Assembly: GCA_964538505.1 (NCBI GenBank)
Contig: CAZIDY010000010.1
Location: 10,004-74,003 of the forward strand
DNA: 64,000 bases
Direction: 5' to 3'
Origin: an uncultured Limnobacter sp.
GTDB lineage: Bacteria; Pseudomonadota; Gammaproteobacteria; Burkholderiales; Burkholderiaceae_E
Part shown: in pieces, positions 6,401 to 58,646 of the stretch
How the letters are laid out: each line of letters starts with the position of its first letter
Numbering within the stretch: position 1 is the stretch's first letter
The notes under the pieces: model-generated
Seen by the model: the letters and a program-made list of their open reading frames with translations, nothing else
The model's database searches: none
What the model was told of the DNA's origin: nothing
Position numbers and translations under genes: made by a program

Positions 6401-9265
6401 CGTGACAACGGGCGCGTCGATGGTCGACTCGATCACAGGCTCGTCGACGGAGAAGTCGCGCGCGTCGGCGCTTTCTGTCGACTCGAAGGACGAGGCAGGT
6501 TCGACGATTTCGATCGATTCGTGCGGTTCGACAACGTCGGCGGTATCGACTGCTTCAACCGCTTCGGGCGGCTCTACTGCGTCGAGCGATTCGAGCTCTT
6601 CAGGCGATTCATGCGATGCACGCGCTTCGGACGATTCGATCGACACGAGGGTGTCGAGCAATTCGACCGCTTCAACCGCATCGATCTCTTCGATGTGATC
6701 GATCGCCTCGGGAGCTTCGATCGCTTCGGCGGACTCGAGCGCTTCGACCGGTTCAGCCGCTTGAACCGGCGGCAACTCCGCTTCGCTCTCGCGCCCTTCG
6801 CGCAACGCCGTCGCCGCCGCCACCATCGGCTGCGGATCGATCTGCGACGACGCATCGCCCTGCAACGCGTCGACCCAGTGCGCGAAGTGCGCGTGCGCCG
6901 CGTCGATCAGCTGGTGCAACACCGCGCTCGCGGCACGCTCCTCGGCGAGCCACAGGTTCAGCACCTGCTCCATCGCCCACGCGGCTTCGCCGAAGGCCAT
7001 GAGCCCGACCATCCGGCTCGAGCCCTTCAACGTATGAAAGCCACGCCGAATCGTCGTCAGCAGTGCAGTGTCGCTCGGCGCGTTGCGCGACTGCGCGGTG
7101 GCCTCCTCGATCGCGGCGAGCACCTCCTGCGCTTCGCCAAGGAAGATCTCGAGCAGCTCCTGGTCGATCTCGGCTTCGGGCCGCTCGGGCTCGACAGCCG
7201 CCGGCTCCGCAACAGCCGGCGCAGTGCTCCCCGACAGCTTGCCGATCGCCGCCTGCAGCGAAGACAGGTCCTCGCCGCTCGACGCATCGAGGCATGCGAT
7301 CGCCTCGTTCGCCGCTGCCTTCAGCGTGTCGTCGTCGGCGAGGTGCGCGTCGTCGCGAACCTTCATCAGCGTACGGCGCAACGAATCGCGCAGCTGCGAA
7401 TCGACCGGACGCTCGACGAGCAGGGCGACGAGTTCGGCGGCCTGGCGCGCATGCTGCGCCAGCAACGACTCGGTGGTCGCGTCGAGCGGAACGACGACGG
7501 TGCGCGGATCCGGCCTCGCCTCGTCGAACACCGCATCGAAGCGCCCGGACGACGCATCGAACTCGAAACGCGCACCCGTGCGATTCGCCTGTTGCAGGCC
7601 CTCGACGAAGAAACCGAGCGCCCCGACGCTGTCGGCTACGTTCTGGCACAGCTCGGGCGCAGGGATGCCCTCCTCGCCCGCGAAGCTCTCGACGCGCGCA
7701 GCAGCGGCGAGCGACGCAGCGGCCGCGTCACCGTGTCCGAGCAACTGGAGCGCGCCCGCCACCTGGCGCAATTGGCGCGCGGTCTGCGGCAGGTCGGTGC
7801 GCTGCGATGCGTCGCGAAAGAATGCATCGAGCGTCTGCTCGGCCGAACGCAGGTTGCCCTGTGCCTCGGCGACGAAGGTCGACATCGTGAGCCGTTCCTG
7901 CGCGAGATGACTGATCTCGCGCAGCCACTGCGGCATCGCTTCGTCGAGCACCCTGCCCGCGCAGACGGAAAGGACCCGCTCGGCCATCTCGCCGGCGTGC
8001 GCGTCGTATTCGCCCTGTCCCTTGAGCCCACGCTCGAAGATCTGCTCGGCGAAGAGCAGCGCCGAGGCGAGCTCGAGTGCAAGCGCCTCCGACGGCACCG
8101 GCTTGCCGAGCGCAAGCGTGCGGCTGGCTTCGCCGAAGGCATCGGCCAGCGCCTGCACGCCGGGAAACGGCAGCTTCGCCACCGCCGAACGCAACGCGGC
8201 AACCGACTGCGTGAACGAGGCAAGCTCGGGCGCGTTGCCCGCAGAGAGCTTCTCCCAGGCCAGTTTCGCGCGTGCGATTGCCTCTTTCGAGGTCCTCAAC
8301 GCTTGCGCATCGACGCGGCCGAAACGCGGCGTCGCGAAATCGGCCGGGACGCTGCCCGGCAGGCCGAATGCCCGCCGCACCTCTGCGACGAGCGGCGAGC
8401 CGGCGCTGCGCAGCTCATCCGCACAGGCGAGCCCGAACAGCGTGTCCCTCAGCAACCGGTCGGCGACGGGTGCACCTTCGGCGATCGATCGACGCAACTG
8501 CAGGTTCAGCCGCGCAAGCAGCCGCTTGCCGTATACGTCGAGCACGAGCGCACCGTCGCGCAGCGCCTCGAACCAGGCGAGTGCCACTTTCCAGAACGTG
8601 GGGTGCGCGGCGCCCACCTGCGAAGCACCGATTCGCGCCACGGCGGCGTGCAGCGCAGCCAGGTCGGCGCCATCGGACGGATCGCGCAGCACCGACAGCA
8701 GCGCACGCTCGAAGGAGACGCGCGTTGCGATCAGCTCGGAGGCATCGCACTCGTGCACGACGTCGTCGTTGCCGACGAGCTGTGCACGCACCGGAACGAC
8801 GAAGAGATCCGCCGGATGAATGCGTTCGGCACCGCGCATCTGCAACAGCGACGCGTAATACGGGAACAGGTACAACGGCTGCTGCGGCTCGCCGATCGCC
8901 AGTTCGTCGAGATACTCGAGGAGCGCCGCGAAGACACGCGCGAAGGCAGCGAGCATCGCCTCGTCGAGCGCGATCTGGCCGCGCGCAACGCGCTCGAGCA
9001 CGGCTTCGGCCTCCGCGGTAACCGTCGACACACCCGCGAGATCGACAATCGACAGCGCACCGTGCGCCTGGTGCAAGGCCGCGCGTGCGGCCGCAAGCCC
9101 CGGCAGCGCTTCGGGCGCGGCAGCCGATTCACCGTTGCCGTCCGACAGACAGGCCCGCAGGCCCTCCTCGCATCCCGCAAGCGATTCGCGGATCTCGCCG
9201 AGACACCACGACAGCGTCGCAAGGTCGGCGGGATCGAGGCTTTCGTTCCGATGCGCGTCGGTCAT
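3458..9265 (-). CDS. chpA: ChpA/PilL-type hybrid CheA-like histidine kinase of the type IV pilus chemosensory system (multi-Hpt, HATPase, CheW, C-terminal receiver)
   Basis: 1935 aa. At least three clear Hpt motifs (FHTLKGSSRM, MHSLKGSASL, LHTVKGSARM). Also an HATPase block (DDGRGLD...GRGVGTDVV), a CheW-like region and a terminal REC domain (VMVVDDSLTVRK...DIEMPRMDG). Lies downstream of pilGHIJ. Confidence 0.9.
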   Translation of the reverse strand: MTDAHRNESLDPADLATLSWCLGEIRESLAGCEEGLRACLSDGNGESAAAPEALPGLAAARAALHQAHGALSIVDLAGVSTVTAEAEAVLERVARGQIALDEAMLAAFARVFAALLEYLDELAIGEPQQPLYLFPYYASLLQMRGAERIHPADLFVVPVRAQLVGNDDVVHECDASELIATRVSFERALLSVLRDPSDGADLAALHAAVARIGASQVGAAHPTFWKVALAWFEALRDGALVLDVYGKRLLARLNLQLRRSIAEGAPVADRLLRDTLFGLACADELRSAGSPLVAEVRRAFGLPGSVPADFATPRFGRVDAQALRTSKEAIARAKLAWEKLSAGNAPELASFTQSVAALRSAVAKLPFPGVQALADAFGEASRTLALGKPVPSEALALELASALLFAEQIFERGLKGQGEYDAHAGEMAERVLSVCAGRVLDEAMPQWLREISHLAQERLTMSTFVAEAQGNLRSAEQTLDAFFRDASQRTDLPQTARQLRQVAGALQLLGHGDAAAASLAAAARVESFAGEEGIPAPELCQNVADSVGALGFFVEGLQQANRTGARFEFDASSGRFDAVFDEARPDPRTVVVPLDATTESLLAQHARQAAELVALLVERPVDSQLRDSLRRTLMKVRDDAHLADDDTLKAAANEAIACLDASSGEDLSSLQAAIGKLSGSTAPAVAEPAAVEPERPEAEIDQELLEIFLGEAQEVLAAIEEATAQSRNAPSDTALLTTIRRGFHTLKGSSRMVGLMAFGEAAWAMEQVLNLWLAEERAASAVLHQLIDAAHAHFAHWVDALQGDASSQIDPQPMVAAATALREGRESEAELPPVQAAEPVEALESAEAIEAPEAIDHIEEIDAVEAVELLDTLVSIESSEARASHESPEELESLDAVEPPEAVEAVDTADVVEPHESIEIVEPASSFESTESADARDFSVDEPVIESTIDAPVVTAQDVHFVVPEVQPAEPVLDEVWIGERSISRSLYEIFLTEADELVSTLSTDAAEWTAQPVRGATETAQRAMHSLKGSASLVQLDEVHAIAEQLETFLLRQRAQAVAITGDDLDDYAHAIERVRGMLHQFAAGHEPRPEPDAFALAHALCARWDPRVTRQPSTSFATESGEELDADLLPIFVEEASDQLPRIGENLRAWQSAPDDRSLSQQLMRDLHTVKGSARMAGAMTLGQHVHEMETRIEAASVLSVVPGTLIEELIADHDQVVELFEAIRDPGRSAVAAQPSSAMVEDEVSTESTIQATAEASAPRPGPMVDVDGSPPAQATPKLEERAVPAATPAAASAAPPAVPAAAAPATPLATAPTPTPAAPPPAAPSLVRVRADLLERALNESGEVSIARSRIENELGTLRLSLQDLTENVGRLRSQLREIEIQAESQIQARIALQKETKADFDPLEFDRYTRFQELARMLAESVNDVATVQTNATRGLDVASQDMVRHAQVLRDLQQNLMRMRMVQFGTISDRLYRVVRQAAKELGKRVSMDLRGAAVEVDRGVLERMVAPIEHLLRNAVAHGIELQAERQAAGKAETGEIRVEVRQEGNEVVIFFQDDGRGLDYAKILARARNIGLVPADASPSERELSELIFAPGFSTASEVTELSGRGVGTDVVRAEVQSLGGRIDIDSEAGQGTRFTVHLPLTLAIAQVVVVTVGSTRYAVPSSSVEQVLQLKPQALASAYDEGSIEWQGAQVPLHYLGALVGLDDPRPLAQHLSPVVVVRSGALRLAMHVDAVSRNQEVVVKNVGAQVARVQGIGGATVLADGEIVLILNAARVAQQVLGDLWLERPAGLDRRTLDDVPPTVMVVDDSLTVRKVTQRLLVREGYEVMLAKDGVDAMRQLQDRQPDVMLVDIEMPRMDGFDLTRNVRADDRLRDTPIVMITSRMADKHRNHAMSLGVNVYLGKPYRDDELLAHLAAFVQARKERVRVS

Positions 9266-9321: not shown

Positions 9322-11622
<2,301 letters not shown>

Positions 11623-15433: not shown

Positions 15434-16492
15434 CTACTGCACCCGGAAGACGACCTCGAGGTCGGGGGCATCAATTGCCTGATCGAACCACTGGCCTATC
15501 CGCACCGAATCGGCCAACGCGATACGTTGCCGGATCTCGGGTGAGACATCGCCGAAGCGCCGCGCGAGCAATCGCAGCAAGGCCGCCACCTCGGCGTCGT
15601 GCCGTCCTTCCTCGCGTCCTTCCTCGCGTCCTTCCTGGCGTCCTTCCTGGCGTCCTTCCTGGCGTCCTTCCTGGCGCCCTTCCTGGCGTCCTTCCTGCAG
15701 CCCTTTCCTGTGCGCCTTCCGCTCGGCAACTCTCGCCTTGCGTTCGATCTCGGCCAGGAGATTGTCGGGGAACATGCTGTGAACCTCTGCAAGATCGTCC
15801 GTCTCGGGGATGTTAGCTTCGGGCATCCGGTATCGCAATCGGCGATTCAGCCAGATGGCGAAGGCACGCCGCATCCGTCGGTGCTCGTCGCCCGAGAGCC
15901 ACTCCAGGAGGTGTGCGGTCACCGACCGGAAGTCCGCGGAAGTACGGGCGACCTCGAGCCGGAACAAAGCAGCGGCCAGATTGCGCAACGGCAGATCAGA
16001 AACGGCGAGGCGCTGTTCGTCGATCAGCAGATAGCGGGCCTCTACCCGATATGGCGCAAGCCCGGGGGGCGACGTCATCAGAAGCGCATCAAGCGAATGC
16101 GCCGAACGCCACGGCGCTTGCCCGTTGTACAGCACGATCGGGAGCACCGGAGGCAGCCGCCCGCCGGAGCCGATCTCCTGGCGAACGACGAGGTCCTGGT
16201 ACAGCAACCCGACGTAGACATGGATGCGCAGCGCCATCCACGGATCGGAGGCGGACTGGAACTCGAGCAGGAGGTAGACATAGAACCATTCGTCGCGCAG
16301 GCGGATCTTCCACACCATGTCGTCGTGGCGCGTGCGCAGATCGTCGCTGACGTAGCTGCCGTTGACCCGGTGCAGTGTCTCGAGGTCAGCCGAATTCACC
16401 CACTCGTGCGGCACAAAGCCGAGCAGCAGGTCGCGTACCATCTCCGGAGTGGCGAACAACCGTTTGTAGCCGGCGTCGTGATCGTGAGGCAT
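15434..16492 (-). CDS. Rpn-family recombination-promoting nuclease / putative transposase (PD-(D/E)XK, YhgA-like) with a DUF4351-like tail
   Basis: MPHDHDAGYKRLF...DMVWKIRL...EWFYVYLLLEFQS is the YhgA/Transposase_31 pattern. The C-terminal LLRLLARRFGDVSPEIRQRIA resembles DUF4351. Confidence 0.8.
   Translation of the reverse strand: MPHDHDAGYKRLFATPEMVRDLLLGFVPHEWVNSADLETLHRVNGSYVSDDLRTRHDDMVWKIRLRDEWFYVYLLLEFQSASDPWMALRIHVYVGLLYQDLVVRQEIGSGGRLPPVLPIVLYNGQAPWRSAHSLDALLMTSPPGLAPYRVEARYLLIDEQRLAVSDLPLRNLAAALFRLEVARTSADFRSVTAHLLEWLSGDEHRRMRRAFAIWLNRRLRYRMPEANIPETDDLAEVHSMFPDNLLAEIERKARVAERKAHRKGLQEGRQEGRQEGRQEGRQEGRQEGREEGREEGRHDAEVAALLRLLARRFGDVSPEIRQRIALADSVRIGQWFDQAIDAPDLEVVFRVQ
15602..15700. 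repeat. in-frame 12-nt tandem repeat (about 8 units, cgtccttcctSg) encoding (QEGR)n/(EEGR)n inside rpn copy 1
   Basis: Read directly: KGLQEGRQEGRQEGRQEGRQEGRQEGREEGREEGRH. The two paralogs carry shorter and diverged versions. Confidence 0.9.
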
Positions 16493-17369: not shown

Positions 17370-18246
17370 TTACTGCACGCGGAAAACCGTCGCGAGGTCG
17401 GGTGCATCGATCACCTGATCGAGCCACTGGCCGATCCGCACGGGGTCGGCCGAAGCGATGCGCTGCCGGATCTCCGGCGAGACATCGCCGAAGCGCCGCT
17501 CGAGCAAACGAAGCAAGACCGCCACCTCGGCTTCGTGGCGTCCTTCCTCGCGTCCTTCCTCGAGTCCGATCTCGCGTCCGGCCTCGCGGCCTTCCTGCAG
17601 CCCTTTCCGGTGCGCCTTGCGCTCGGCCACTTTCGCCTTGCGTTCGAGCTCGGCCAGGATATCGTCGGGGAACATGCTCTGGACCTCCGCCAGGTCGTCC
17701 ATCTCGGGAATGTTAGCTTCGGGCATTCGGTGCCGCAATCGACGGTTCAGCCAGATCGCGAAGCCTCGCCGCAGGCGCCGATGTTCCTCGCCCGAGAGCC
17801 AATCCAGCAGGTGCGCGATCACCGTGCGCCAGCAGAAGCGCATCGAGCGCCAGCGGCGCACGCCACGGCGCCTGCCCGTTGTAGAGCACGATCGGCAACA
17901 CCGCGGGCAGCCGGTCCCCGGGCCCGATCTCTCTGCGCGCGACCAGATCCTGGTACAGCAGCCCGACGTAGACGTGCATGCGCAGCGCCATCCACGGATC
18001 GGAGGCCGACTGAAACTCGAGCAGCAGATAAACGTAGAACCATTCGTCGCGCAGGCGAATCTTCCAGACCATGTCGTCGTGGCGGGAGCGCAAGTCATCG
18101 CCGACGTAGCTGGCGTTGACCCGTTGCAGGCTCGCGAAGTCAGCCGACTTCACCCAGTCGTGCCCGACGAAACCGAGCAGCAGGTCGCGCATCATCTCCG
18201 GAGCGGCGAACAACCATTTGTAGCCGGCGTCGTGATCGTGAGGCAT
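17370..18246 (-). pseudogene. Rpn-family nuclease paralog disrupted by an internal frame-shifting deletion
   Basis: The N-terminal part (MPHDHDAGYKWLF...LDALLLA) is in the frame of ORF 17713..18510. The C-terminal part (TVIAHLLDWLSGEEHRR...FRVQ) is in the frame of ORF 17370..18098. About 50 codons (SPPGLAPYR...TSADF in the paralogs) are missing. Confidence 0.75.
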
Positions 18247-19045: not shown

Positions 19046-19106
19046 CGCCGAGCCACATGGCGTAGGCGAGCTGCATGCGCGGGCCGAGGCACTTTGCGGG
19101 GAACAG

Positions 19107-19182
19107 TTCGGACTGCAAAAACGTGCGTTCTCTTTCGTGGAATCGATTCCACGAAAGAGAACGCTACATTTTGAAGTCCGAA
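19107..19182. repeat. 75-bp palindromic REP-like element, copy A
   Basis: ttcggactgcaaaaacgt-gcgttctctttcgtggaatc|gattccacgaaagagaacgc-tacattttgaagtccgaa. Perfect 20+20 bp core at 19125..19164. Intergenic. Confidence 0.75.
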
Positions 19183-19421
19183 TCGTGCTCGGCGCTCGGT
19201 GCTCGGGCGCTCGGGCGCTGGGGTCCATGGTCCGTGCGCAAGCTGCGCACGCACACGACGGTGCCGGGGCGGCTCGGCCGGTTCGTGTGACGAGGGCGAA
19301 GAATGCTGCGCTCGCGCCCGCGAACTCGGGCTGTGGTGTGGTAGACGGAACGGGCCCTGACGCCTGGGGCGCGTGTGCCTTGCCCTGATGCAGGCTCGCT
19401 TGCTCGCCAGCTGCCACCGTC

Positions 19422-22619: not shown

Positions 22620-23410
22620 AACGTTATTGCCGCGCGCGGAACGTGCTCAGATGAGCGGAGCCACCTCTCCTCTCCAGATCCACATCGACCACGGTCCGGT
22701 AGCCGTCCTGCACGTACTGCCGTGCACGGAGCACTGCGTCATGCGCACGGCGTCCCGGCGGAAGCCGTAGCTGTGATCGGAGAAGATCGGATCGATCGAC
22801 AGGCCATCCACCCCGGCACCGCCGCGATTGGCTTTGACGCGTTCCCACGCCACCACCAGATTCGCTCTCGCGAGCGCCTGCGTAAGCAGGCTGCCCCGCC
22901 CCGAGCCTTCGGCTCCGTCCCGCGCCATCGGTGCTTCGTCGCGCATCGCTTGCGCTCGGGCTTCACCTCACGCTGCACGCTGCGCCCCGGTTGCCCGGGC
23001 TTCTGACGCCTTGCACTTCCAAGCGACACGGTCGTTCGGCTCTTCCACTCGTTCGGCCCTTCGCCCCATACCGGCGGCTATTACGACCTCTGCTGACTTC
23101 TCGCTCCGGGTCATCCCCGTCGGCCTTTCAGCCGCAAGGCGAGATCTCCCCAGGTAAGAACGCACTCCTTCGCTGCACAGCCGCCGGATCTACGCCGTCT
23201 CGCCTTGATCACGAGAGCTTCGCGGTTTCTGGCCCGCTCGCCCTGCTCAGCAACGCGTTGTATCCGGTTCTTGTCCATCGGCTCGCAGCTTATGGTCCGC
23301 GCTTCCTTCCCACGCTCGGTCGCCCTCACGCAGTTGCGCTTCGCTTCGTTCGCTGTGATCAACTTACGACGGGACTTGCACCCGCAGGAATGCGCCCGTG
23401 CCGGGTGCAC
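22620..23410 (-). mobile_element. 5' fragment of a group II intron (ribozyme domains plus a truncated, frameshifted reverse transcriptase/maturase)
   Basis: The minus strand begins GTGCACCCGGCACGGGCGCA at 23410. ORF 22647..22946 encodes LLTQALARANLVVAWERVKANRGGAGVDGLSID...SYGFR, an intron-encoded RT N-terminus. The next RT block (RRAHDAVLRARQYVQDGYRTVVDVDLE) sits in another frame (ORF 22624..22848) and then ends. Confidence 0.7.
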
Positions 23411-25032: not shown

Positions 25033-25149
25033 GGGGTCCTGCTGCGCTGCTCCCGTCGCCGCCGCGCCGCCTCGCACACCCGCTCGGGCTGATGGAGCGA
25101 TATTCGCTCTGTAAAACGAGCATTTCCGTTCGCAGAATCGGCTCCACGA

Positions 25150-25536
25150 ATGGGATCGCTCGGAATACGAGCGGCAGCGCCCGACGATAAGATTGGCAAA
25201 GCAGGCAGCAACCAGACCAGCGACGAACCGATCTGTCACAGAACGCCAGCCCCTGCACATGAGCAGCGCTTCGACACCCTTCAGTTCGTCGAAACCCTTC
25301 AGGAAGCCGGAGTTCCGGAGATCCAGGCCAAGGCGATTTCGAAGGCCGTGCGCAACGCCTACGATACGGCCGAACCGGTCACGAAGACGGACCTGCGCGA
25401 AGCGGTATCAGAATTGCGGGCGGAGATCCGGGAGCTCGACTCCAGGATGGACAAGCTCGGGTTGCAGCTGACCATCCGGCTCGGTGGGCTCGTTGTCATT
25501 GCGCTCGTACTTCAGTCGCTCTCCCCGCCGACTTAA
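25150..25536 (+). CDS. DUF1640-like protein, short paralog (start uncertain)
   Basis: FDTLQFVETLQEAGVPEIQAKAISKAVRNAYD...KLGLQLTIRLGGLVVIAL. The first ATG/GTG in frame is at 25150, which gives an unusually long N-terminus. Confidence 0.5.
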   Translation: MGSLGIRAAAPDDKIGKAGSNQTSDEPICHRTPAPAHEQRFDTLQFVETLQEAGVPEIQAKAISKAVRNAYDTAEPVTKTDLREAVSELRAEIRELDSRMDKLGLQLTIRLGGLVVIALVLQSLSPPT

Positions 25537-26572: not shown

Positions 26573-26761
26573 GCTTCGAGGTCTTCGATGTCCTCACGCA
26601 ACGTGACGGCATCACCGTGTTGTAGACGAAGCATCGTGATCCACTTGAAGAACAACTCCAGTGGGCTACCCTGCTACCCGCTACCGCACGTTGCATTCTC
26701 GGCCGTTGAACGAATTCGACGGGGGGAAACGCAACATTCCGTCGCGGGACTTCCGCAGCGG

Positions 26762-32329: not shown

Positions 32330-33493
32330 TCAGCGTGCGGCGGCGGCGACGACTTTCTCGGCCGCCTCGCCCATCGTGTCGGCCGAAATGATCGGCAGCC
32401 CCGAGTCGGCGAGCAGCTTCTTGCCGAGCTCTTCGTTCGTTCCCTTCATGCGCACGACGAGCGGAACCTTCAGCCCGACCGCCTTCGACGCGGCGATCAC
32501 GCCTTCGGCGATGACGTCGCAACGCATGATGCCGCCGAAGATGTTGACGAGGATCGCCTGCAGGTTCGGATTGCGCAGCATCAGCTTGAAGGCCTCGGTG
32601 ACCTTCTCGGTGGTGGCGCCGCCGCCCACGTCTAGGAAGTTCGCCGGCTCGCCGCCGAAGAGCTTGATGGTGTCCATCGTCGCCATCGCCAGCCCGGCGC
32701 CGTTCACCAGGCAGCCGATGTTGCCGTCGAGCTGGATGTAGGCGAGGTCGTATTTCGACGCCTCGATCTCGGCCGGGTCTTCCTCGTCGAGATCGCGCAG
32801 CTCGACGATCTCGGGATGACGGAACAGTGCGTTCTCGTCGAAGTTCATCTTCGCGTCGAGCGCGATCACCTTGCCGTCGCCGGTGAGGATGAGCGGGTTG
32901 ATTTCGGCGAGCGACGCGTCGGTTTCCCAGAATGCGCGGTAGAGCCCCTGCAGCACCGTGCGCGCCTGCGGCAGGCTCGCGTCGGGGATGCCGATCTTGC
33001 GCGCCACGTCGTCGGCCTGTTCGTCGGTGAGTCCGGCCACCGGATCGATCATCACCTTGTGGATCTTCTCGGGCGTGCTCGCGGCGACTTCCTCGATATC
33101 CATGCCGCCCTCGCTCGACGCCATCAGGCACACGCGCTGCGAGACGCGATCGACGACCATGCCGAGGTAGAGCTCCTTCTGGATGTCGGCGCCCTCCTCG
33201 ATGAGCAGCCGGCGCACCTTCTGCCCTTCGGGGCCGGTCTGGTGCGTCTTCAGCTGCATGCCGAGGATTTCCGATGCGGTGCTGCGCACCTCGTCGATCG
33301 AGCGCGCGAGCTTCACGCCGCCGCCCTTGCCGCGGCCTCCGGCGTGGATCTGTGCCTTGACGACCCACACCGGACCGCCGAGCGCCTGCGCCGCACTCAC
33401 CGCCTCGTCGACCGAAAAGCACGGAATGCCGCGCGGCACCGTGACGCCGAAGCGCTTCAGGAGTTCCTTGCCCTGGTACTCGTGGATCTTCAC
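32330..33493 (-). CDS. sucC: ADP-forming succinate--CoA ligase subunit beta
   Basis: GTG start giving (M)[16 protein letters not shown]..., preceded by AGAGGAAA. 387 aa. The ORF track merges it into a longer upstream-extended ORF. Confidence 0.95.
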
Positions 33494-34104
33494 GGGGTTT
33501 CCTCTTTGGAAGCTGCGGAATCGTCGGCTGCGCGGACTCGCGTCTTGGTGCGGTACCACGCAGGGTAGTAACGCTGCACCGCAGGGCCGTCGCTGCGCAA
33601 GGCATGACAGCGGTCGATCTGGAACGGACGCGGGCCGTGGCCGGCCGCCTGGCGCTCCATCTCGGCGTATCGACGCTTGTCGCCTGCGAAGGCCTGCACC
33701 GCGGCGGTGGGCAGCGACTGCGCGAGCTCGGTGAGATGCGTGCAGCCGCGCGTCTCGCCGAGGCGTTCGCGCAATGCGACGCGAAAGCCGCGCATGAGAT
33801 TCAGGCCGACGAGCTTGCGGTAATCGCCGACGATGTTCTCGCAATAGCCGGCGTAGGGCACGGAGTCGGAAACGGCGATGGCGTCGATGACCTCGAGCTC
33901 GTCGTTGATGGTGACGCGCAGGCGCATCGCGTGCATTGCCTCGCCGCCCTTGCGCACGCCGCTCTGCAGCGGCGTGTCGTGCGGCTTCACGTCGACGAGC
34001 TCGGCTTCGAGGTCCCAGCGGCCGTCCTCCCGGCGGTACGCGTCGACCCGCACGGTGCGGGTGTGCATCGGAGTGCGCGGGTACTCGACAGGGGGCAGCG
34101 GCAT
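33490..34104 (-). CDS. DUF2889 domain protein
   Basis: 204 aa with the [12 protein letters not shown] motif I associate with DUF2889. Its stop overlaps the sucC start (GTGA). Confidence 0.6.
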
Positions 34105-34225
34105 GCTCGAAGAAGCGGCGCGAGCGAAGCGCGGGCGCAGCGGGAAGCGGCGGGCTTTGAGGGACGTGGGAAAGCAGTGAAGTTTAGCACGCGAGGGGGT
34201 TGGGACGGCTGGGCGGTGGGGGTGG

Positions 34226-34356
34226 CGCGCCGCTCGGGTCGGGCGCGCCGCTCGGGTCGGGCGCGGCGCTCGGGTCGGGTGCGCCGCTCGGGTCGGGCGC
34301 GGCGCTCGGGTCGGGTGCGCCGCTCGGGTCGGGCGCGGCGCTCGGGTCGGGCGCGG
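34226..34356. repeat. 18-bp tandem repeat array (about 7.5 units, gcgSSgctcgggtcgggY)
   Basis: Read directly. Units are contiguous with no spacers. Intergenic, about 55 nt from REP copy B. Confidence 0.9.
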
Positions 34357-34410
34357 CGGCGCGAGCGGGCGTTGGCGGGCGGCGCAGAAGCGGGCACGGC
34401 GTCGTTAGCC

Positions 34411-34491
34411 TTCGTCCTGGGCTACAAAATCGCGCGTTCTCCTTCGTGGAATGGATTCCACGACGGGAAACGCTACAAATTGAGGTCCGAA
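34411..34491. repeat. palindromic REP-like element, copy B (degenerate core)
   Basis: ...gggctacaaaatcgc-gcgttctccttcgtggaat-gg-attccacgacgggaaacgc-tacaaattgaggtccgaa, 44 nt downstream of the RayT-like stop. Confidence 0.7.
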
Positions 34492-34534
34492 GTCGTCCAT
34501 GCGTGACTCCGCTGCGGCACGCCTGGGCTGCGTT

Positions 34535-35653
34535 TCACGCACGAAGCGCCGTGCGCCCGGACAAACTTCGATCCGCGGGCTCCGCCGCCGCGTCTGAACA
34601 CAAGGGCGTCACGGACAGACGCCGGTCCGCAAGCGTCAGGGCCATCGCATGCAGTTCGTCAGCGGTAAGAGGGCTTCGTCGAATGCGAGTTTCAGCGCCC
34701 GACGCGGCCGCTCTCCTGGCTCGCGACTTGCGCGCAGCTTCAGCCCTCGAACTTCGTCGTGCCACGCTCGTGCGGTCCGCGATGCCGCCGATCGCAACGT
34801 TCCGGTCGACGATGCGTTCGACCGGGGCTCCTTCACACCGGGCCACAATTCCATCCATGACTGTTTCTTCACACCGAGCCATCTTGAGGGCATTGCTGCG
34901 ATGACAACCGATGTAGCGGGCGAGTTCCGGAGCGCGGTAGCGCGTCCATCTCGTCGCCGACAGCAAAAAGAGCCGACGCTCGGCAGCATCGAACTCGTGC
35001 GGCGCGCTGCGTGCGCTCCGAAGCACGCGCGAGACCGCCGACGCGATTGCCTCGAGGGACGCCTCCTTCTCGCGTGCACGAAGCCAAGGCGTGCAATCTG
35101 CCAGGGCCCCGGCAATGCGAACAGAGGCGTCCGACGTTACGTATTCGTGCAGCCATTCGATGCACGAAGGCAGACGACGACCCATCGCCCGTGCCCATCG
35201 CGCGCGATCGACACCGGGGCGGGCGACGGCGCCGACCCAGTCGCGATGCGTGCTCCACTCCCATTCGAGCGGGTCGTTGCAGAGTGCGTCCCGCGTCGGG
35301 TTCAGGTGGATGTAGCGAAGTGTTCGTGCGATGTGCCTCTTGTCGTCCTGGACCTTCTCGGGTTGCGGGAGACGCTCCCAGTCGAACGCGAGATCCGGAT
35401 GCATCGTTGCCTGCATCCGGAGACGGAATGCCGAAAGCACACGGGCGAAGGCTCGCAAGGCGATGTCGGGCTCGATGTGAGCGAGCAGATGTACGTGATC
35501 GGGCATAAGCACGCACGCGACGACATCGAAGCTTCGCGTGATGCGACTCCACAGATCCGCGCAGGCGAAGCGTTCATGGAAGGGACGCGCACCGGAAGCC
35601 GTGCGCGCAACGAGATGCAACAACTGGAGGTCTGCCATCTCTGAATCGTGCAC
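34535..35653 (-). CDS. REP-associated tyrosine transposase-like protein (HUH/Y1, IS200/IS605 superfamily) with a C-terminal HTH extension
   Basis: LHLVARTASGARPF..., LMPDHVHLL (HUH) and RTLRYIHLNPTRDAL (catalytic Tyr helix). The C-terminal ERRLFLLSATRWTRYRAPELARYIGCHRSNALKMAR resembles the DnaA C-terminal HTH. Start is GTG 35653 or ATG 35638. Confidence 0.75.
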   Translation of the reverse strand: MHDSEMADLQLLHLVARTASGARPFHERFACADLWSRITRSFDVVACVLMPDHVHLLAHIEPDIALRAFARVLSAFRLRMQATMHPDLAFDWERLPQPEKVQDDKRHIARTLRYIHLNPTRDALCNDPLEWEWSTHRDWVGAVARPGVDRARWARAMGRRLPSCIEWLHEYVTSDASVRIAGALADCTPWLRAREKEASLEAIASAVSRVLRSARSAPHEFDAAERRLFLLSATRWTRYRAPELARYIGCHRSNALKMARCEETVMDGIVARCEGAPVERIVDRNVAIGGIADRTSVARRSSRAEAARKSRARRAAASGAETRIRRSPLTADELHAMALTLADRRLSVTPLCSDAAAEPADRSLSGRTALRA

Positions 35654-35847
35654 ATTGCTCGGTGCGCGCGCATCTGCACGGATGGATTAGGCCAGCTCAG
35701 TATTTCGATCGTCCGCATCATGGGCCCGAGCACCGAGCACCGAGCACCGAGCACCAGCACCAGCACCAGCCCGGACCTCAGGTCGCAAACTGAGTTCTTC
35801 TCGTTGACCGACGCGTTCGTAGGACGAACTACGTGACGTGCGCACGA

Positions 35848-35923
35848 TTCGAACTTCAAAAGGTAGCGTTCTCGCTCGTGGAATGGATTCCACGAGCGAG
35901 AACGCGCGCTTTTGTAGTCCGAA
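35848..35923. repeat. palindromic REP-like element, copy C (inverted relative to A, B and D)
   Basis: ttcgaacttcaaaaggta-gcgttctcgctcgtggaat-gg-attccacgagcgagaacgc-gcgcttttgtagtccgaa. Perfect 19+19 core. Lies 195 nt upstream of the RayT-like start. Confidence 0.75.
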
Positions 35924-36214
35924 CTGTTCGTGGCGCATGTGCTTTGGCCGACGCATGTGTCTTGGCCTGCGCATGCCTCGGGTCAGCGGAGGCCCCCTCA
36001 ACCCACGCATCCTGCTCACGCACGCCATGCAGCTCGACCGCCGCTCGGTTGACTGAAGCGAGTAACTCGACCCAACGCTCGTAGTTCGAACGGTCGTGGC
36101 ACGCACGGTTGCTCCGGTGCCTGCAACTCGAATCGTTGACCAGCGCGCTTCGGCAGAGACCGACGGCGCAGACGCAGCGCGTCGTGATGCGGACGCAGCG
36201 CGCCCTGGTGCGGA

Positions 36215-36372: not shown

Positions 36373-36834
36373 TCAAACCGGCTCGTCGTCCGAGCCTCCT
36401 CTACCAACCACCCGCCGCACCACCTCCGCCGAGAACCCGCGAGCCAGCAGAAAGCGCGACTGTCGCGCCCGCTCGACCAGCGATTCCGGCGCCGACCCGA
36501 AACGGCGCACCCACAACGCCCGCGCGCGCTCGTACTCGCTCTTCTCGAGCGACGCTAGATGCCCCGCGACTGCCTCATCGGCCAGCCCATGCGCGCGCAG
36601 CTCATGCCGGATCACCGCCGCACCACGCGTGGACGCACGTCGATGCACCACCGATTGCGCGAAGCGCTCGTTCGAGAGCAGCCCCGTCTCGACAAGGCGA
36701 TCGAGCAGCGCCTGCAACTGCTCTGCGCTCTCGGCGTGCGGCGCGAGCTTGCGCTCGAGCTCGACGCGGCTGTGCTCGCGGCGCGCGAGCGCGCGCAGGG
36801 CGCGCGCTTTCAGTGAAGCTTCGGGGCGCGGCAT
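36373..36834 (-). CDS. recX: recombination regulator RecX
   Basis: 153 aa, directly downstream of recA. ALRALARREHSRVELERKL matches the RecX repeat pattern. Confidence 0.85.
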   Translation of the reverse strand: MPRPEASLKARALRALARREHSRVELERKLAPHAESAEQLQALLDRLVETGLLSNERFAQSVVHRRASTRGAAVIRHELRAHGLADEAVAGHLASLEKSEYERARALWVRRFGSAPESLVERARQSRFLLARGFSAEVVRRVVGRGGSDDEPV

Positions 36835-36880: not shown

Positions 36881-37939
36881 TCAGGCGGCGGCCTCTTCCG
36901 CCGCGGCGCCGCGCGGCGAAACGCCGAAGTGCGCGCGCACCTTGTTCTCGATTTCGAGCGCGAGCTCGGGGTTCTCGCGCAGGTACTCGCGCGCGTTGTC
37001 CTTGCCCTGGCCGATGCGGTTGCCGCTGTAGCTGTACCAGGCGCCGCTCTTGTCGACGATGCCGGATGAGGCGCCGAGATCGAGGATCTCGCCTTCGCGC
37101 GATGTGCCTTCGCCGTACAGGATGTCGAACTCGGCCGTCTTGAACGGCGGCGCGACCTTGTTCTTGACGACCTTGACGCGCGTTTCGTTGCCGATGATCT
37201 CGTCGGCTTTCTTGATCGAGCCGGTGCGCCGGATGTCGAGGCGCACCGACGCGTAGAACTTCAGCGCGTTGCCGCCGGTGGTGGTTTCGGGGTTGCCGAA
37301 CATCACGCCGATCTTCATGCGGATCTGGTTGATGAAGATGACGGTGGTGTTCGTGCGGTTGATCGTTCCGGTGAGCTTGCGCAGTGCCTGCGACATCAGG
37401 CGGGCCTGCAGGCCGGGGAGCGAATCGCCCATCTCGCCTTCGATTTCCGCTTTCGGCGTGAGCGCCGCGACGGAGTCGATGACGATGAGATCGACCGACC
37501 CGGAACGAACCAGCGCATCGGTGATCTCGAGCGCCTGCTCGCCGGTGTCGGGCTGCGAGATGAGCAGCTCTTCGAGGTCGACGCCGAGTCGGGACGCGTA
37601 TTGCACGTCGAGCGCGTGCTCGGCATCGATGAACGCACAGGTGCCGCCGATCTTCTGCATCTCGGCGATGACCTGCAGCGTGAGCGTGGTTTTCCCCGAG
37701 GACTCGGGGCCGTAGATCTCGATGACGCGACCGCGCGGCAGACCGCCCACGCCCAGCGCGAGATCGAGCCCGAGCGAGCCGGTGGAGACGACCTGGATAT
37801 CGCGCGAGACATCGGCGTCGGAGAACTTCATTACCGAGCCCTTGCCGAACTGCTTCTCGATCTGGGCCAGCGCCGCGGACAAGGCCTTCGCGCGCTCGGT
37901 ACGGGATTTTGCATCGTCCATGTTGATCACTTTTTCCAT
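36881..37939 (-). CDS. recA: recombinase RecA
   Basis: [17 protein letters not shown]...[16 protein letters not shown]...[37 protein letters not shown]. Confidence 0.97.
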
Positions 37940-40519: not shown

Positions 40520-41165
<646 letters not shown>

Positions 41166-54811: not shown

Positions 54812-54899
54812 TCGATACCTCCGATTGACACCTATTGTACGTGTTGCAGGCGCGAGGCGTGCGTCTGATCGCGGTCGACACAATCGGGGGCAGACCACC

Positions 54900-54952
54900 A
54901 AAATCGGGGTCAGACCACGGTTACGACGTAACCGTGGTCTGACCCCGATTTT
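54900..54952 (-). terminator. perfect 24-bp-stem palindrome directly after argC (bidirectional terminator-like); member of a short repeat family
   Basis: aaaatcggggtcagaccacggtta-cgacg-taaccgtggtctgaccccgatttt. A/T runs lie at both ends. A partial third copy, caatcgggggcagaccacc, lies at 54881..54899. Confidence 0.7.
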
Positions 54953-54957
54953 GCCCC

Positions 54958-56019
54958 TCAGGGCAGGATCGGCACCTGCGTCAGCCCCGTATCCTCGGGC
55001 AGCCCGAACATCAGGTTCATCACCTGCACGCCCTGCCCCGACGCGCCCTTCACGAGGTTGTCCTCGACGACGAGCACCATCAGCAGGTCGCTGTCGGGCG
55101 GCCGATGCACGGCGATGCGAACGAAGTTCGATGCGCGCACCGAGCGGGTTTCCGGCGCCGAACCGGCCGGCATCACGTCGACGAAGGGCTCGTCGGCGAA
55201 GCGGCGCTCGTAGAGCGCCTGAAAGTCGAGATCGCGTGCACGCGGGGTGATGCGCGCGTACAGCGTCGAGAAGATGCCGCGGATCATCGGCACCAGGTGC
55301 GGCGTGAACGCGAGCTTCACCGGCTTGCCGGCGACCGCCTCGAGCCCCTGCCGAATCTCCGGCAGATGCCGGTGCCCGGTGACGGAATATGCACGGAAGT
55401 TGTCGCCCGCTTCTGCGAGCAGCGTCCCCACCTCTGCCTTGCGACCCGCGCCCGAAGCGCCCGACTTGCAGTCGGCGATCAGACTGTCGAGCTCGACCAG
55501 GTCGCCTCCTGCGGCACGCGCGGCCTGCGGGTCGACGACCGGCAGGAAGCCGAGCTGCACCGAGGTCGGATAGCAGCCGGGCAGGCCGATGACGCGCGCA
55601 TCGCGAATCGCGTCGCGATTCACTTCAGGCAACCCGTACACCGCTTCGGCGAGCACCTCCGGGCACGAGTGCGGCATCCTGTACCAGCGCTCGAACTCGG
55701 CAGTGCTCTTCAGGCGAAAGTCGGCCGCGAGATCGATGAGGCGCACGCCCGCCGACAACAGCTCGGGCGCCTGCGCCATCGCAACGCCGTGCGGCGTGGC
55801 GAAGAAGACGACGTCGCATTTCGACAGCGGTGCAGACGCGGGATCGGTGAAGGCGAGATCGACGCGGCCGCGCAGCGACGGGAACATCTCCGCCACCGGC
55901 AGGCCGGACTCCTTGCGCGACGTGATCGCAACGAGCTCGACCTGCGGGTGCTGCGACAACAGGCGCAGCAACTCGACACCGGTGTATCCGGTGCCGCCGA
56001 CTATTCCGACCTTGATCAT
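54958..56019 (-). CDS. argC: N-acetyl-gamma-glutamyl-phosphate reductase
   Basis: [21 protein letters not shown]...GCYPTS. GGAGG lies 8 nt upstream of ATG 56019. Confidence 0.92.
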
Positions 56020-57338: not shown

Positions 57339-57725
57339 GTGCAGGTGCTGCTCGACACGCACGTGCTGCTCTGGTGGCTGACAGACGACGAGCGCCTGTC
57401 TCACGCGGTTCGACGCGTCATCGCCGAACCCGCCAACGAGATCCTCGTCAGTGCAGCCAGCGCGTGGGAGCTGTCGACGAAGTACCGCCTCGGCAGGCTT
57501 CGCGGCTGCGAGGAGATCGTAGTGCGCTACACGGAGATCATCGAAGCCGAGCATTTCCGGACGCTTGCCATCGAGCCACGTCATGCGCTGCTGGCCGGCA
57601 CCTACGCCACCCGCCACCGGGATCCCTTCGACCGCATGCTCGCCGCACAAAGCGAGCTCGAGTCGCTGCCGCTCGCCACCGACGACGAAGCCTTTCGATC
57701 CTTTCCCTGCCGAACGCTGTGGTGA
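57339..57725 (+). CDS. vapC: PIN-domain toxin (VapC family)
   Basis: (M)QVLLDTHVLLWWL...SAASAWEL...HRDPFDRMLAAQS. Begins 3 nt after the antitoxin stop. Confidence 0.85.
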   Translation: MQVLLDTHVLLWWLTDDERLSHAVRRVIAEPANEILVSAASAWELSTKYRLGRLRGCEEIVVRYTEIIEAEHFRTLAIEPRHALLAGTYATRHRDPFDRMLAAQSELESLPLATDDEAFRSFPCRTLW

Positions 57726-57787
57726 AAAAAAAACCCGGACGCGAGGCCCGGGTTGAATCCACCAAGGAGGAGGAGGTGGAGGAGACA
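57726..57787 (-). ncRNA. candidate small RNA with a CU-rich (anti-Shine-Dalgarno) hairpin loop and an intrinsic terminator
   Basis: Minus strand: TTGCAC-17 nt-TATAGT (57821..57793), then about 60 nt reading gucuccuCCACCuccuccuccuuGGUGGauucaaCCCGGgccucgcguCCGGGuuuuuuuuu. No credible CDS on this strand. Confidence 0.5.
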
Positions 57788-58508: not shown

Positions 58509-58545
58509 CCGACGCGGCGGCAGCGGTGCAGTAGCCGGCACGATT

Positions 58546-58619
58546 GAGACTACAAAATGCGGCGTTCTCGTTCGTGGAATCGATTCCACGAACGAGAACG
58601 CGCGAAATTGAGGTTCGAA
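58546..58619. repeat. palindromic REP-like element, copy D
   Basis: gagactacaaaatgcg-gcgttctcgttcgtggaatc|gattccacgaacgagaacgc-gcgaaattgaggttcgaa. Perfect 20+20 core. Lies between the convergent osmC and coq7. Confidence 0.75.
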
Positions 58620-58646
58620 CAGACGCGCTCTACAAACAGGTGCGCG

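Follow-up and report, generated by a model that had tools for sequence, protein, structure and literature searches.

A RAYT-lineage HUH protein gene between REPIN-like palindromes in an uncultured Limnobacter: a probable REPtron/TIRtron-type locus

The DNA analyzed here (the window) is a 64,000-nucleotide stretch from an uncultured Limnobacter sp. (assembly GCA_964538505.1, contig CAZIDY010000010.1, positions 10,004 to 74,003). It is high-GC betaproteobacterial DNA, and our subject is a gene in it that encodes a Y1 HUH protein (HUH, histidine-hydrophobic-histidine) resembling the RAYTs (REP-associated tyrosine transposases; REP, repetitive extragenic palindromic), together with the palindromes on either side of the gene. 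Read along the minus strand, recA (36881-37939) comes first and is followed by recX (36373-36834), the RAYT-like gene, a DUF2889 gene (33490-34104), sucC and sucD. An earlier reading, made from the sequence alone, had proposed a coding sequence for 372 aa at 34535..35653 (-). That open reading frame (ORF) is present, but alignment of homologues and the database protein P0001 show the true coding sequence to be 34535..35638, or 367 aa. The start codon was placed at the ATG at 35638 (MADLQLL; M-A-D-L-Q-L-L-H-L-V-A-R), five codons inside the ORF, because the equivalent ATG begins every homologue as well as P0001, which is identical and also 367 aa long. The gene and the parts of its product map as follows:

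34535..35638, minus strand: RAYT-like Y1 HUH protein gene, 367 aa (from the ORF, the homologue alignment and P0001).
35489..35503, minus strand: HUH motif P-D-H-V-H, residues 46-50; H48 and H50 invariant in 64 homologues.
35296..35316, minus strand: catalytic Tyr motif R-Y-I-H-L-N-P (Y109), of the class-2 "Y---NP" type; R108, Y109, N113 and P114 invariant.
34835..34987, minus strand: helix-turn-helix (HTH) region, about residues 218-268 (ERRLFLLSATRWTRYRAPELARYIGCHRSNALKMAR), from HTH_23, HTH_29 and HTH_28 matches in homologues and from fold matches.
34613..34663, minus strand: conserved C-terminal helix ELHAMALTLADRRL, after a variable low-confidence linker, from conservation and model confidence (pLDDT, predicted local distance difference test).

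Of the three parts of the protein, the first is the Y1 catalytic core (about residues 1-135) and the second a helical region in the middle (about residues 140-215); the third consists of the HTH, a variable linker and the conserved C-terminal helix. Both catalytic hallmarks named by the sequence-only reading, LMPDHVHLL and RYIHLNPTRD, are present, and careful alignment of 64 homologues revealed no loss of the HUH or Tyr residues: H48, H50, R108, Y109, N113 and P114 (numbering of the 367-aa protein) never vary, and the same is true of the W-E-W-S-x-H-R-D motif that follows the Tyr helix. The PDHVH segment aligns with PEHMH of Escherichia coli TnpA-REP and with PDHVH of ISDra2 TnpA. When the family profile was compared with TnpA-REP (4er8), the alignment spanned the HUH (PEHMH), the W motif, DYIYINP and DWPFSTFHRD, and the tail pattern W-x-[FW]-S-T-x-HRD is common to both. 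The Y motif of class 2 is Y---NP, while that of IS200 transposases is Y---Q (PMC6006769); by its Y---NP signature the protein therefore falls into the RAYT-like class 2 of Quentin et al. 2018 rather than among the IS200 transposases. A profile search for a Y1/RayT relationship returned REP_Tyr_transpos (41 bits, E = 1e-10) and Y1_Tnp (19 bits), both sub-cut-off. The structure predicted with AlphaFold2 from the 64-sequence alignment (pLDDT 88.5, predicted template modeling (TM) score 0.84) has as its best fold match in the Protein Data Bank (PDB) 4er8_A, the complex of TnpA-REP with a REP hairpin (probability 1.00, TM 0.60 on target, root-mean-square deviation 3.2 A, 137 columns), followed by the ISDra2 and IS608 transposases. 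At the sequence level the best PDB match is ISDra2 TnpA, with E = 4e-4 over the HUH region. Judged from alignment and predicted fold, the Y1/RAYT relationship of the protein is secure despite the low family scores.

Two copies of one palindromic element had been placed around the gene, at 34411..34491 and 35848..35923. A covariance model (R1), built from 28 copies of several genomes, agrees with both positions within 3 nt. The claim that the element recurs beyond the locus also holds, with two more strong and two degenerate intergenic copies in the window. This makes six copies in 64 kb (four strong, two degenerate), each about 76-80 nt long and all between ORFs that resemble real genes. In the following list the scores are those of the covariance model and the folding energies were computed for single-stranded DNA (ssDNA); no strand is assigned to the copies.

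34414..34493: copy B, eroded, 42-121 nt downstream of the stop codon; 66.7 bits; -14 kcal/mol, z = -2.3.
35846..35925: copy C, 208-287 nt upstream of the start codon, its central stem perfect over 18 bp; 84.6 bits; -32 kcal/mol, z = -9.
19105..19184: copy A, dispersed, intergenic; 82.7 bits; -34 kcal/mol, z = -12.
58542..58621: copy D, with convergent OsmC-like and COQ7-like genes on its two sides, their 3' ends facing it; 72.5 bits; -25 kcal/mol, z = -7.
26673..26752: diverged intergenic copy with the core CCGTTGAACGAATTCGACGG; 49.4 bits, E = 3e-12.
25099..25179: degenerate copy, 67 nt downstream of a ferredoxin-reductase-like gene; 31.5 bits, E = 7e-7.

A 29-nt core pattern, allowed up to 3 mismatches, matched seven times in the window (both strands counted) against 0.00 expected from 100 shuffles. 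The ssDNA hairpins of copies A, C and D comprise 30-35 bp. No Rfam family matched the palindromes at gathering thresholds.

Across the 28 copies the long hairpin has 78% of its cells paired, compared with 34-44% when the partners are slid, and 25 of its 35 pairs have changed on both sides. An alternative model, in which a 16-bp hairpin occupies the center and a 5-bp hairpin (GCTAC-N5-GTAGC) lies to either side of it, pairs 82% of cells, about as good a result; since the arms are nearly palindromic in themselves, the two models are inseparable. Variation is almost absent from the 14 positions at the center, GTGGAA..TTCCAC, even between genomes with proteins of only 58-70% identity, whereas the remaining stem varies. 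The claim that copies B and C lie in opposite orientation stands only in part. They do align better when inverted (79.5% over 73 nt) than directly (72.9% over 70 nt), but the margin is small, the single asymmetry of the element, a central G.G mismatch (AATGGATT), does not change strand from one copy to the other, and in the orthologous loci L014, L017 and L020 direct alignment of the flanking copies is slightly better than inverted. Orientation is barely defined because the element is close to its own reverse complement, and with the G.G on one strand and the orthologous loci marginally favoring direct alignment, inversion is not robust for the window-type repeat. At L018, where the repeat of a paralogue is asymmetric, the flanks align over 85 nt at 79% identity in inverted orientation only. 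The CTAC/GTAG tetranucleotide noted in the arms is indeed there, in six of the eight arms of the four strong copies and not in five as first counted. The arm consensus across genomes is GCTAC-AAAAT-GnAGC-G, with four invariant positions, C9, G21, C60 and G72 (alignment A4). The GTAG foot is absent from the repeats of the paralogues.

To examine the association of gene and repeat we fetched ten homologue loci beside the window. Cognate hairpin repeats were present in all ten, on both sides of the gene in eight (L014, L017, L018, L020, L021, L022, L029, L032) and on one side in two (L019, L031). The slot recA-recX, gene, DUF2889-sucC-sucD is common to the window, L014 and L017, with proteins 62-70% identical: P0005 (about 67-70%) and P0009 (about 62-69%) both occupy the recA-recX slot and are bracketed by the palindrome family of the window. 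In L017 the core stem has a compensatory change at its base, affecting both sides, TGTGGAAT..ATTCCACA. A second slot, between EcsC and HigBA, holds P0026 and P0017 (58-59% identical), bracketed by a CGTGGAAC variant, and here two further repeat copies lie 2-5 kb off, at orthologous positions in both genomes. At L029 there are four repeat copies in 19.5 kb. P0021, a paralogue in the metagenome-assembled genome (MAG) that also carries P0009 (GCA_021166725.1; L017 and L018), is flanked by an unrelated inverted hairpin doublet, AAATGCTGYG..CRCAGCATTT. In a third slot, between E1/transketolase and xanthine dehydrogenase genes, P0061 and P0048 have in common CTCCCGAAAACGGGAG hairpins downstream of the gene. 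P0048 comes from a Zeimonas MAG (GCA_036406255.1; L031) that also holds window-type palindromes (L004-L006, L011); because these palindromes are present and P0048, the only paralogue recovered from it, has a different repeat, this MAG would have a second paralogue, unassembled or unsampled. P0063 has a 27-nt terminal inverted repeat (TIR). For P0072 (35% identical) and for P0076, a protein from the Bdellovibrionales, the bracketing repeats are hairpin doublets specific to each.

Each protein lineage has its own repeat type, different repeats accompany the paralogues of one genome, and the genes keep their slots. These are hallmarks of RAYT/REP(IN) systems, for which a single REP family per RAYT, doublets in the form of REPINs and vertical inheritance as a single copy have been published (PMC6006769, PMC5581495, PMC8266576). 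The repeat is thus tied to the position of the gene: the bracketing recurs in eight fetched loci, is one-sided in two, and changes its sequence with the protein lineage. We regard it as most improbable that the adjacency is a coincidence and the palindromes a generic intergenic repeat of the lineage. Their low copy number and their occurrence also far from the gene would fit such an explanation, but bracketing in the window and eight further loci, and one-sided flanking in two more, extends to relatives from another phylum whose repeats are entirely different.

Two observations concern the content of these genomes and loci. Single MAGs carry at least two paralogues, each with its own conserved slot and its own repeat type. 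Between the upstream repeat position and the RAYT-like gene, L019 has an insertion sequence (IS)-type transposase gene at 7995-9080 (IS630/DDE_3), and L032 has at 9373-9903 a possible HTH/IS-type ORF that gave no Pfam matches; the upstream repeat, missing in L019 and displaced in L032, may have been affected by the intervening IS-type gene.

Flanks of this kind could also be the ends of an autonomous IS-like transposon, either an element in the style of IS200/IS605, with its subterminal hairpins, or a TIRtron that has remained mobile as a whole. They can be read as TIRs (79.5% inverted identity between B and C, 79% over 85 nt inverted at L018, 93% for the 27-nt TIR of L032), there are several paralogues per lineage, and RAYT-like genes flanked by TIRs have been described by Di Nocera et al. 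(PMC3733652). However, the slot between recX and DUF2889 is kept in three genomes whose proteins are 62-70% identical, and two other paralogue lineages also keep slots of their own. By tblastn there is no second, near-identical copy of the gene in the window or in any locus, and no tnpB-like neighbor was found at the window or the homologue loci. The palindromes, moreover, occur without the gene, as copies A and D and at thirteen loci (L001-L013) that were found by way of the repeat core. These thirteen are taken as orphan palindromes because tblastn with the protein, run against 8-kb pieces, gave no match in them. The Y motif, finally, is Y---NP and not the Y---Q of IS200. We consider a unit of this kind very unlikely; synteny, copy number and Y---NP led us to reject a mobile unit of the IS200/IS605 type.

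The two small hairpins of a cognate repeat start exactly 51 nt apart in every repeat type examined except the TIR of L032. The spacing persists despite unrelated hairpin sequences, differing relative orientation and hosts of different phyla. The hairpin starts are:

L031: 5387, 5438 and 5489.
L019: 11154/11205 and 11481/11532.
L018: 9462/9513.
L022: 9369/9420 and 10832/10883.
L021: 9864/9915 and 10948/10999.

In the window-type element the feet are likewise 51 nt apart (alignment columns 8 and 59), and its covariance model also detects the doublets of L022 (27 bits) and L018 (23 bits). Because small-hairpin pairs or feet lie 51 nt apart across repeat types, the palindrome of about 75 nt is, from its sequence, best read as a REPIN-like doublet whose spacer has itself turned into a conserved palindrome. 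The sequence-only reading had described a unit about twice the length of a REP; the length holds, and is refined here to two small hairpins or feet at this fixed distance.

We turn to the C-terminal half, which had been likened to a DnaA-C-type HTH. An HTH is present: among 64 homologues, Pfam matched HTH_23 in 13, HTH_29 in 6 and HTH_28 in 4. When the C-terminal half was modeled separately (pLDDT 79), structures of DnaA domain IV bound to DNA (3pvp and 1j1v) took the first three places among the PDB matches, though these matches are weak (probability 0.93-0.98, TM 0.57-0.58 on target, Foldseek E 0.4-1). Pfam Bac_DnaA_C (PF08299), in contrast, went unmatched: the window protein by itself gave nothing at E <= 1, the set of 64 sequences that joins it with 63 homologues nothing at E <= 0.1, and 60 distant relatives nothing at E <= 0.01. 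A profile of the C-terminal half searched against PDB sequences gave only non-significant generic HTH matches (IclR, E = 0.12; homeobox, E = 0.25; DnaA 1j1v, E = 0.32). DnaA domain IV thus provides the best fold matches (3pvp, 1j1v) and a faint sequence echo (1j1v, E = 0.32), whereas the DnaA box TT[AT]TNCACA bears no resemblance to GTGGAAT..ATTCCAC, the conserved core of the repeat. "DnaA-C-type HTH" is thus a fair name for the predicted fold, though as a statement of family membership it would go too far. The C-terminal helix (ELxAMALxLADxRL) has a pLDDT of 96-98 in the full model, and its residues A331, A333, L336, A337, D338, R340 and L341 are at least 90% conserved.

The presence of this domain raises the question of whether the protein has become a domesticated DNA-binding regulator or nucleoid-type factor, whose HTH dimer binds the double-stranded core GTGGAAT-N2-ATTCCAC, with the palindromes serving as operators and/or bidirectional terminators spread by other means and the Y1 domain serving another role than repeat mobilization, such as nicking for replication or repair. 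The 14 core positions that are (near-)invariant across genomes with proteins 58-70% identical, an HTH whose best fold matches are to DNA-bound DnaA domain IV, and a spacing of 51 nt, or about five turns of B-DNA, would all suit such a factor, as would the position of five of the six window copies downstream of the 3' end of a gene and the scoring of copy C as a terminator on both strands. On the other hand, the invariance of HUH and Tyr throughout the clade argues for retained strand-cleavage chemistry, a gene with flanking lineage-specific repeats is the signature of RAYT/REP, and a regulator has no need for copies on both sides of its gene, yet these are seen in eight of the ten fetched loci and in the window. 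Weighing the two, we think a regulator of this kind unlikely.

The features found here were compared with those of three known systems. With the RAYT/TnpA-REP proteins (E. coli YafM, 4ER8; the RAYTs of Pseudomonas and Stenotrophomonas) the protein has in common the Y1 HUH core, Y---NP, the tail W-x-F/W-S-T-x-HRD and the closest fold. The loci are alike in a fixed, vertically inherited slot, in palindromes on both sides of the gene with others dispersed between genes, in one repeat family per paralogue, and in doublet repeats like REPINs. They differ in that the clade protein is twice as long (about 300-370 aa compared with about 150-190 aa) because of its helical middle region, HTH and conserved C-terminal helix, in that the GTAG foot is only partly conserved here and the central core, not the foot, is most conserved, and in the 51-nt distance between the small hairpins (except in the L032 TIR) and the low copy number so far.

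RAYT-like proteins with an HTH are already known as TnpAY1 subclass 2.1, Bertels group 1 or TIRYT (PMC6006769, PMC3733652). Subclass 2.1 was reported without REP-like sequences nearby, the TIRs, if any, carrying a GGGGWSAS motif (PMC6006769, PMC3733652). As in this group, a RAYT-like core is joined to a C-terminal HTH, there related to Bac_DnaA_C, HTH_23 or HTH_28; the Y motif is Y[IV]HLNP (RYIHLNP here), and NHVH occurs in several homologues, to which the DHVH of the window protein is a partial fit. Copy number per genome is low in both, and some TIRtron repeats are self-complementary and moderately repeated. In contrast, the genes of the present clade are flanked by hairpin repeats, in the window and at ten homologue loci, and neither GGGGWSAS nor its complement was found in 34411-34535 or 35639-35930. 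By motif and description, on which this comparison is based, subclass 2.1 also differs in its median length of 238 aa, against about 280-370 aa here, and the clade lacks Bac_DnaA_C matches. The TnpA proteins of IS200/IS605 (IS608, ISDra2) resemble the window protein in the HUH/Y1 fold and, by analogy, in an expected hairpin-directed chemistry on single strands, but here the motif is Y---NP and not Y---Q, tnpB is missing, the gene is single-copy and syntenic, and there are extra C-terminal domains.

The close family comprises 74 clusters at 90% identity and is confined to Burkholderiaceae and Zeimonas MAGs and metagenomes. Some members are annotated as "REP element-mobilizing transposase RayT" (IMG), and most as "hypothetical protein" (NCBI). 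A HMMER search with the family profile against 1.84 billion representatives returned 350 proteins at E <= 1e-30 and 1421 at E <= 1e-10, typically of 270-300 aa and matching the core, the middle region and the HTH; the named distant relatives come from Bdellovibrionota and Polyangiaceae MAGs. REP_Tyr_transpos was the best NCBIfam family for all 61 distant relatives tested, below cut-off, and Pfam Y1_Tnp reached E < 0.01 in only three of the 61. The clade amounts to at least 350 clusters at 50% identity, mostly from uncultured Burkholderiales, Bdellovibrionota and Myxococcota. A scan for the 20-nt repeat core found 13 stretches in 185,579 species genomes and 6 in a metagenome collection, the window's own genome lying outside both; two of the stretches, in Nocardia and an unrelated MAG, are chance matches.

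We conclude that this is probably a REPtron/TIRtron-type locus, in which a fixed, vertically inherited gene of a RAYT-lineage Y1 HUH protein lies between copies of its cognate REPIN-like palindrome. Homology, fold, invariant catalytic residues, the bracketing layout, lineage-specific repeats, dispersed copies and synteny are the observations behind this conclusion. They support the REPtron layout of the sequence-only reading, a RayT gene bracketed by repeats, and none of the findings that the reading had named as fatal to it was made: the Y1/RAYT relationship and the catalytic residues stand, and the element is repeated beyond the locus and tied to the gene. Several points weigh against the conclusion. 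Scores fall short of the cut-offs for both NCBIfam REP_Tyr_transpos (NF047646; 41.4 bits, E = 1e-10, cut-off 80) and Pfam Y1_Tnp (PF01797; 19.3 bits, cut-off 23), and those of the relatives tested do likewise. The known copy number is so far low (6 in 64 kb), and the exact core occurs in only about 11 + 6 (about 17) loci of public collections. No insertion or excision polymorphism of a palindrome copy was observed between related genomes. The GTAG foot is replaced in the orthologous copies of L014 and L017, copy C is predicted to be terminator-like on both strands, and the invariant core with its symmetric co-variation fits a double-stranded operator for a dimeric HTH protein equally well.

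Cleavage, mobilization, the role of the HTH and binding by a dimer are proposed by homology with E. coli TnpA-REP and the TnpA of IS608 and ISDra2 (PMC8266576, PMC6006769). The Y1 core would bind the palindrome in its folded form, once this DNA has become single-stranded or has been extruded into a hairpin or cruciform, as could happen on the lagging-strand template. Tyr109 would then cleave beside the folded DNA while the HUH histidines hold the metal, and rejoining of the strands would allow the palindrome to be excised, copied or reinserted in trans, the gene itself presumably no longer moving. The most likely task of the extra HTH would be to recognize the almost invariant core GTGGAA-N4-TTCCAC by its sequence, to serve autoregulation through the flanking copies, or both. 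The constant distance of 51 nt between the small hairpins points to joint reading of two sites, in which a dimer is probably involved.

The locus is an extension of known REP/RAYT systems, a longer variant and not a new kind of element. The suggestion of a distinct REP/RayT class must be narrowed in that the combination of HTH and RAYT has already been published; what is new is the association with REPs and the architecture. It is a tentative idea, which we hold to be rather improbable, that the clade forms a separate, unclassified class in which a DnaA-domain-IV-like HTH and the HUH core read a bipartite site with hairpins 51 nt apart. If so, its mode of recognition would be unlike the GTAG-foot and bulge rules of TnpA-REP. 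REP/RAYT is the best-studied case of a domesticated bacterial transposase living with non-autonomous repeats, and where the literature reports no REPs, we find a large, mostly uncultured HTH-bearing clade with cognate hairpin repeats, one type per paralogue. The clade offers a testable model of how an added DNA-binding domain alters repeat recognition, and annotation pipelines gain a family that is missed at current Pfam and NCBIfam thresholds.

Tandem arrays adjoin several of the palindromes (Tandem Repeats Finder scores are given where available; no strand is assigned):

34224..34371: 18-nt x 8 array between copy B and the DUF2889 gene; score 229.
35726..35767: 7-nt x 6 array (CCGAGCA) between copy C and the start of the gene; score 70.
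35934-35975 and 19185-19223: further arrays of the window beside palindromes.
L017, 11113-11192; L018, 9516-9940 and 11169-11360; L019, 10850-11030; L029, about 8560-8640: arrays beside the repeats of homologue loci.

Their units are of 7, 8, 18 or 24 nt, G+C-rich, and often contain GCTCGG or TCGGG, and both unit and length vary between orthologous loci. Nicking by the enzyme might seed these hypervariable short arrays.

The window contains other features that are separate from the locus. No tRNAs were found in it. At 54893-54959 there is an unrelated perfect palindrome with a 24-bp stem (AAAATCGGGGTCAGACCACGGTTACG and its complement); a partial copy of its left arm, in direct orientation, stands before it, and the palindrome may be a member of a second repeat family. 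At 23056-23329 (-), Rfam recognized domains D1-D4 of a group II intron (100 bits and 41 bits), which places such an intron about 11 kb from the locus. A match to the Rfam "Betaproteobacteria toxic small RNA" (66 bits) at 57725-57787 (-), about 750 nt from copy D, directly follows a PIN/VapC-like ORF at 57339-57725 (+). There is a (TCG)40 run at 40580-40699, and two arrays of a 12-nt unit (CGTCCTTCCTGG / GCGTCCTTCCTC) lie at 15603-15720 and 17538-17596, about 1.8 kb apart.

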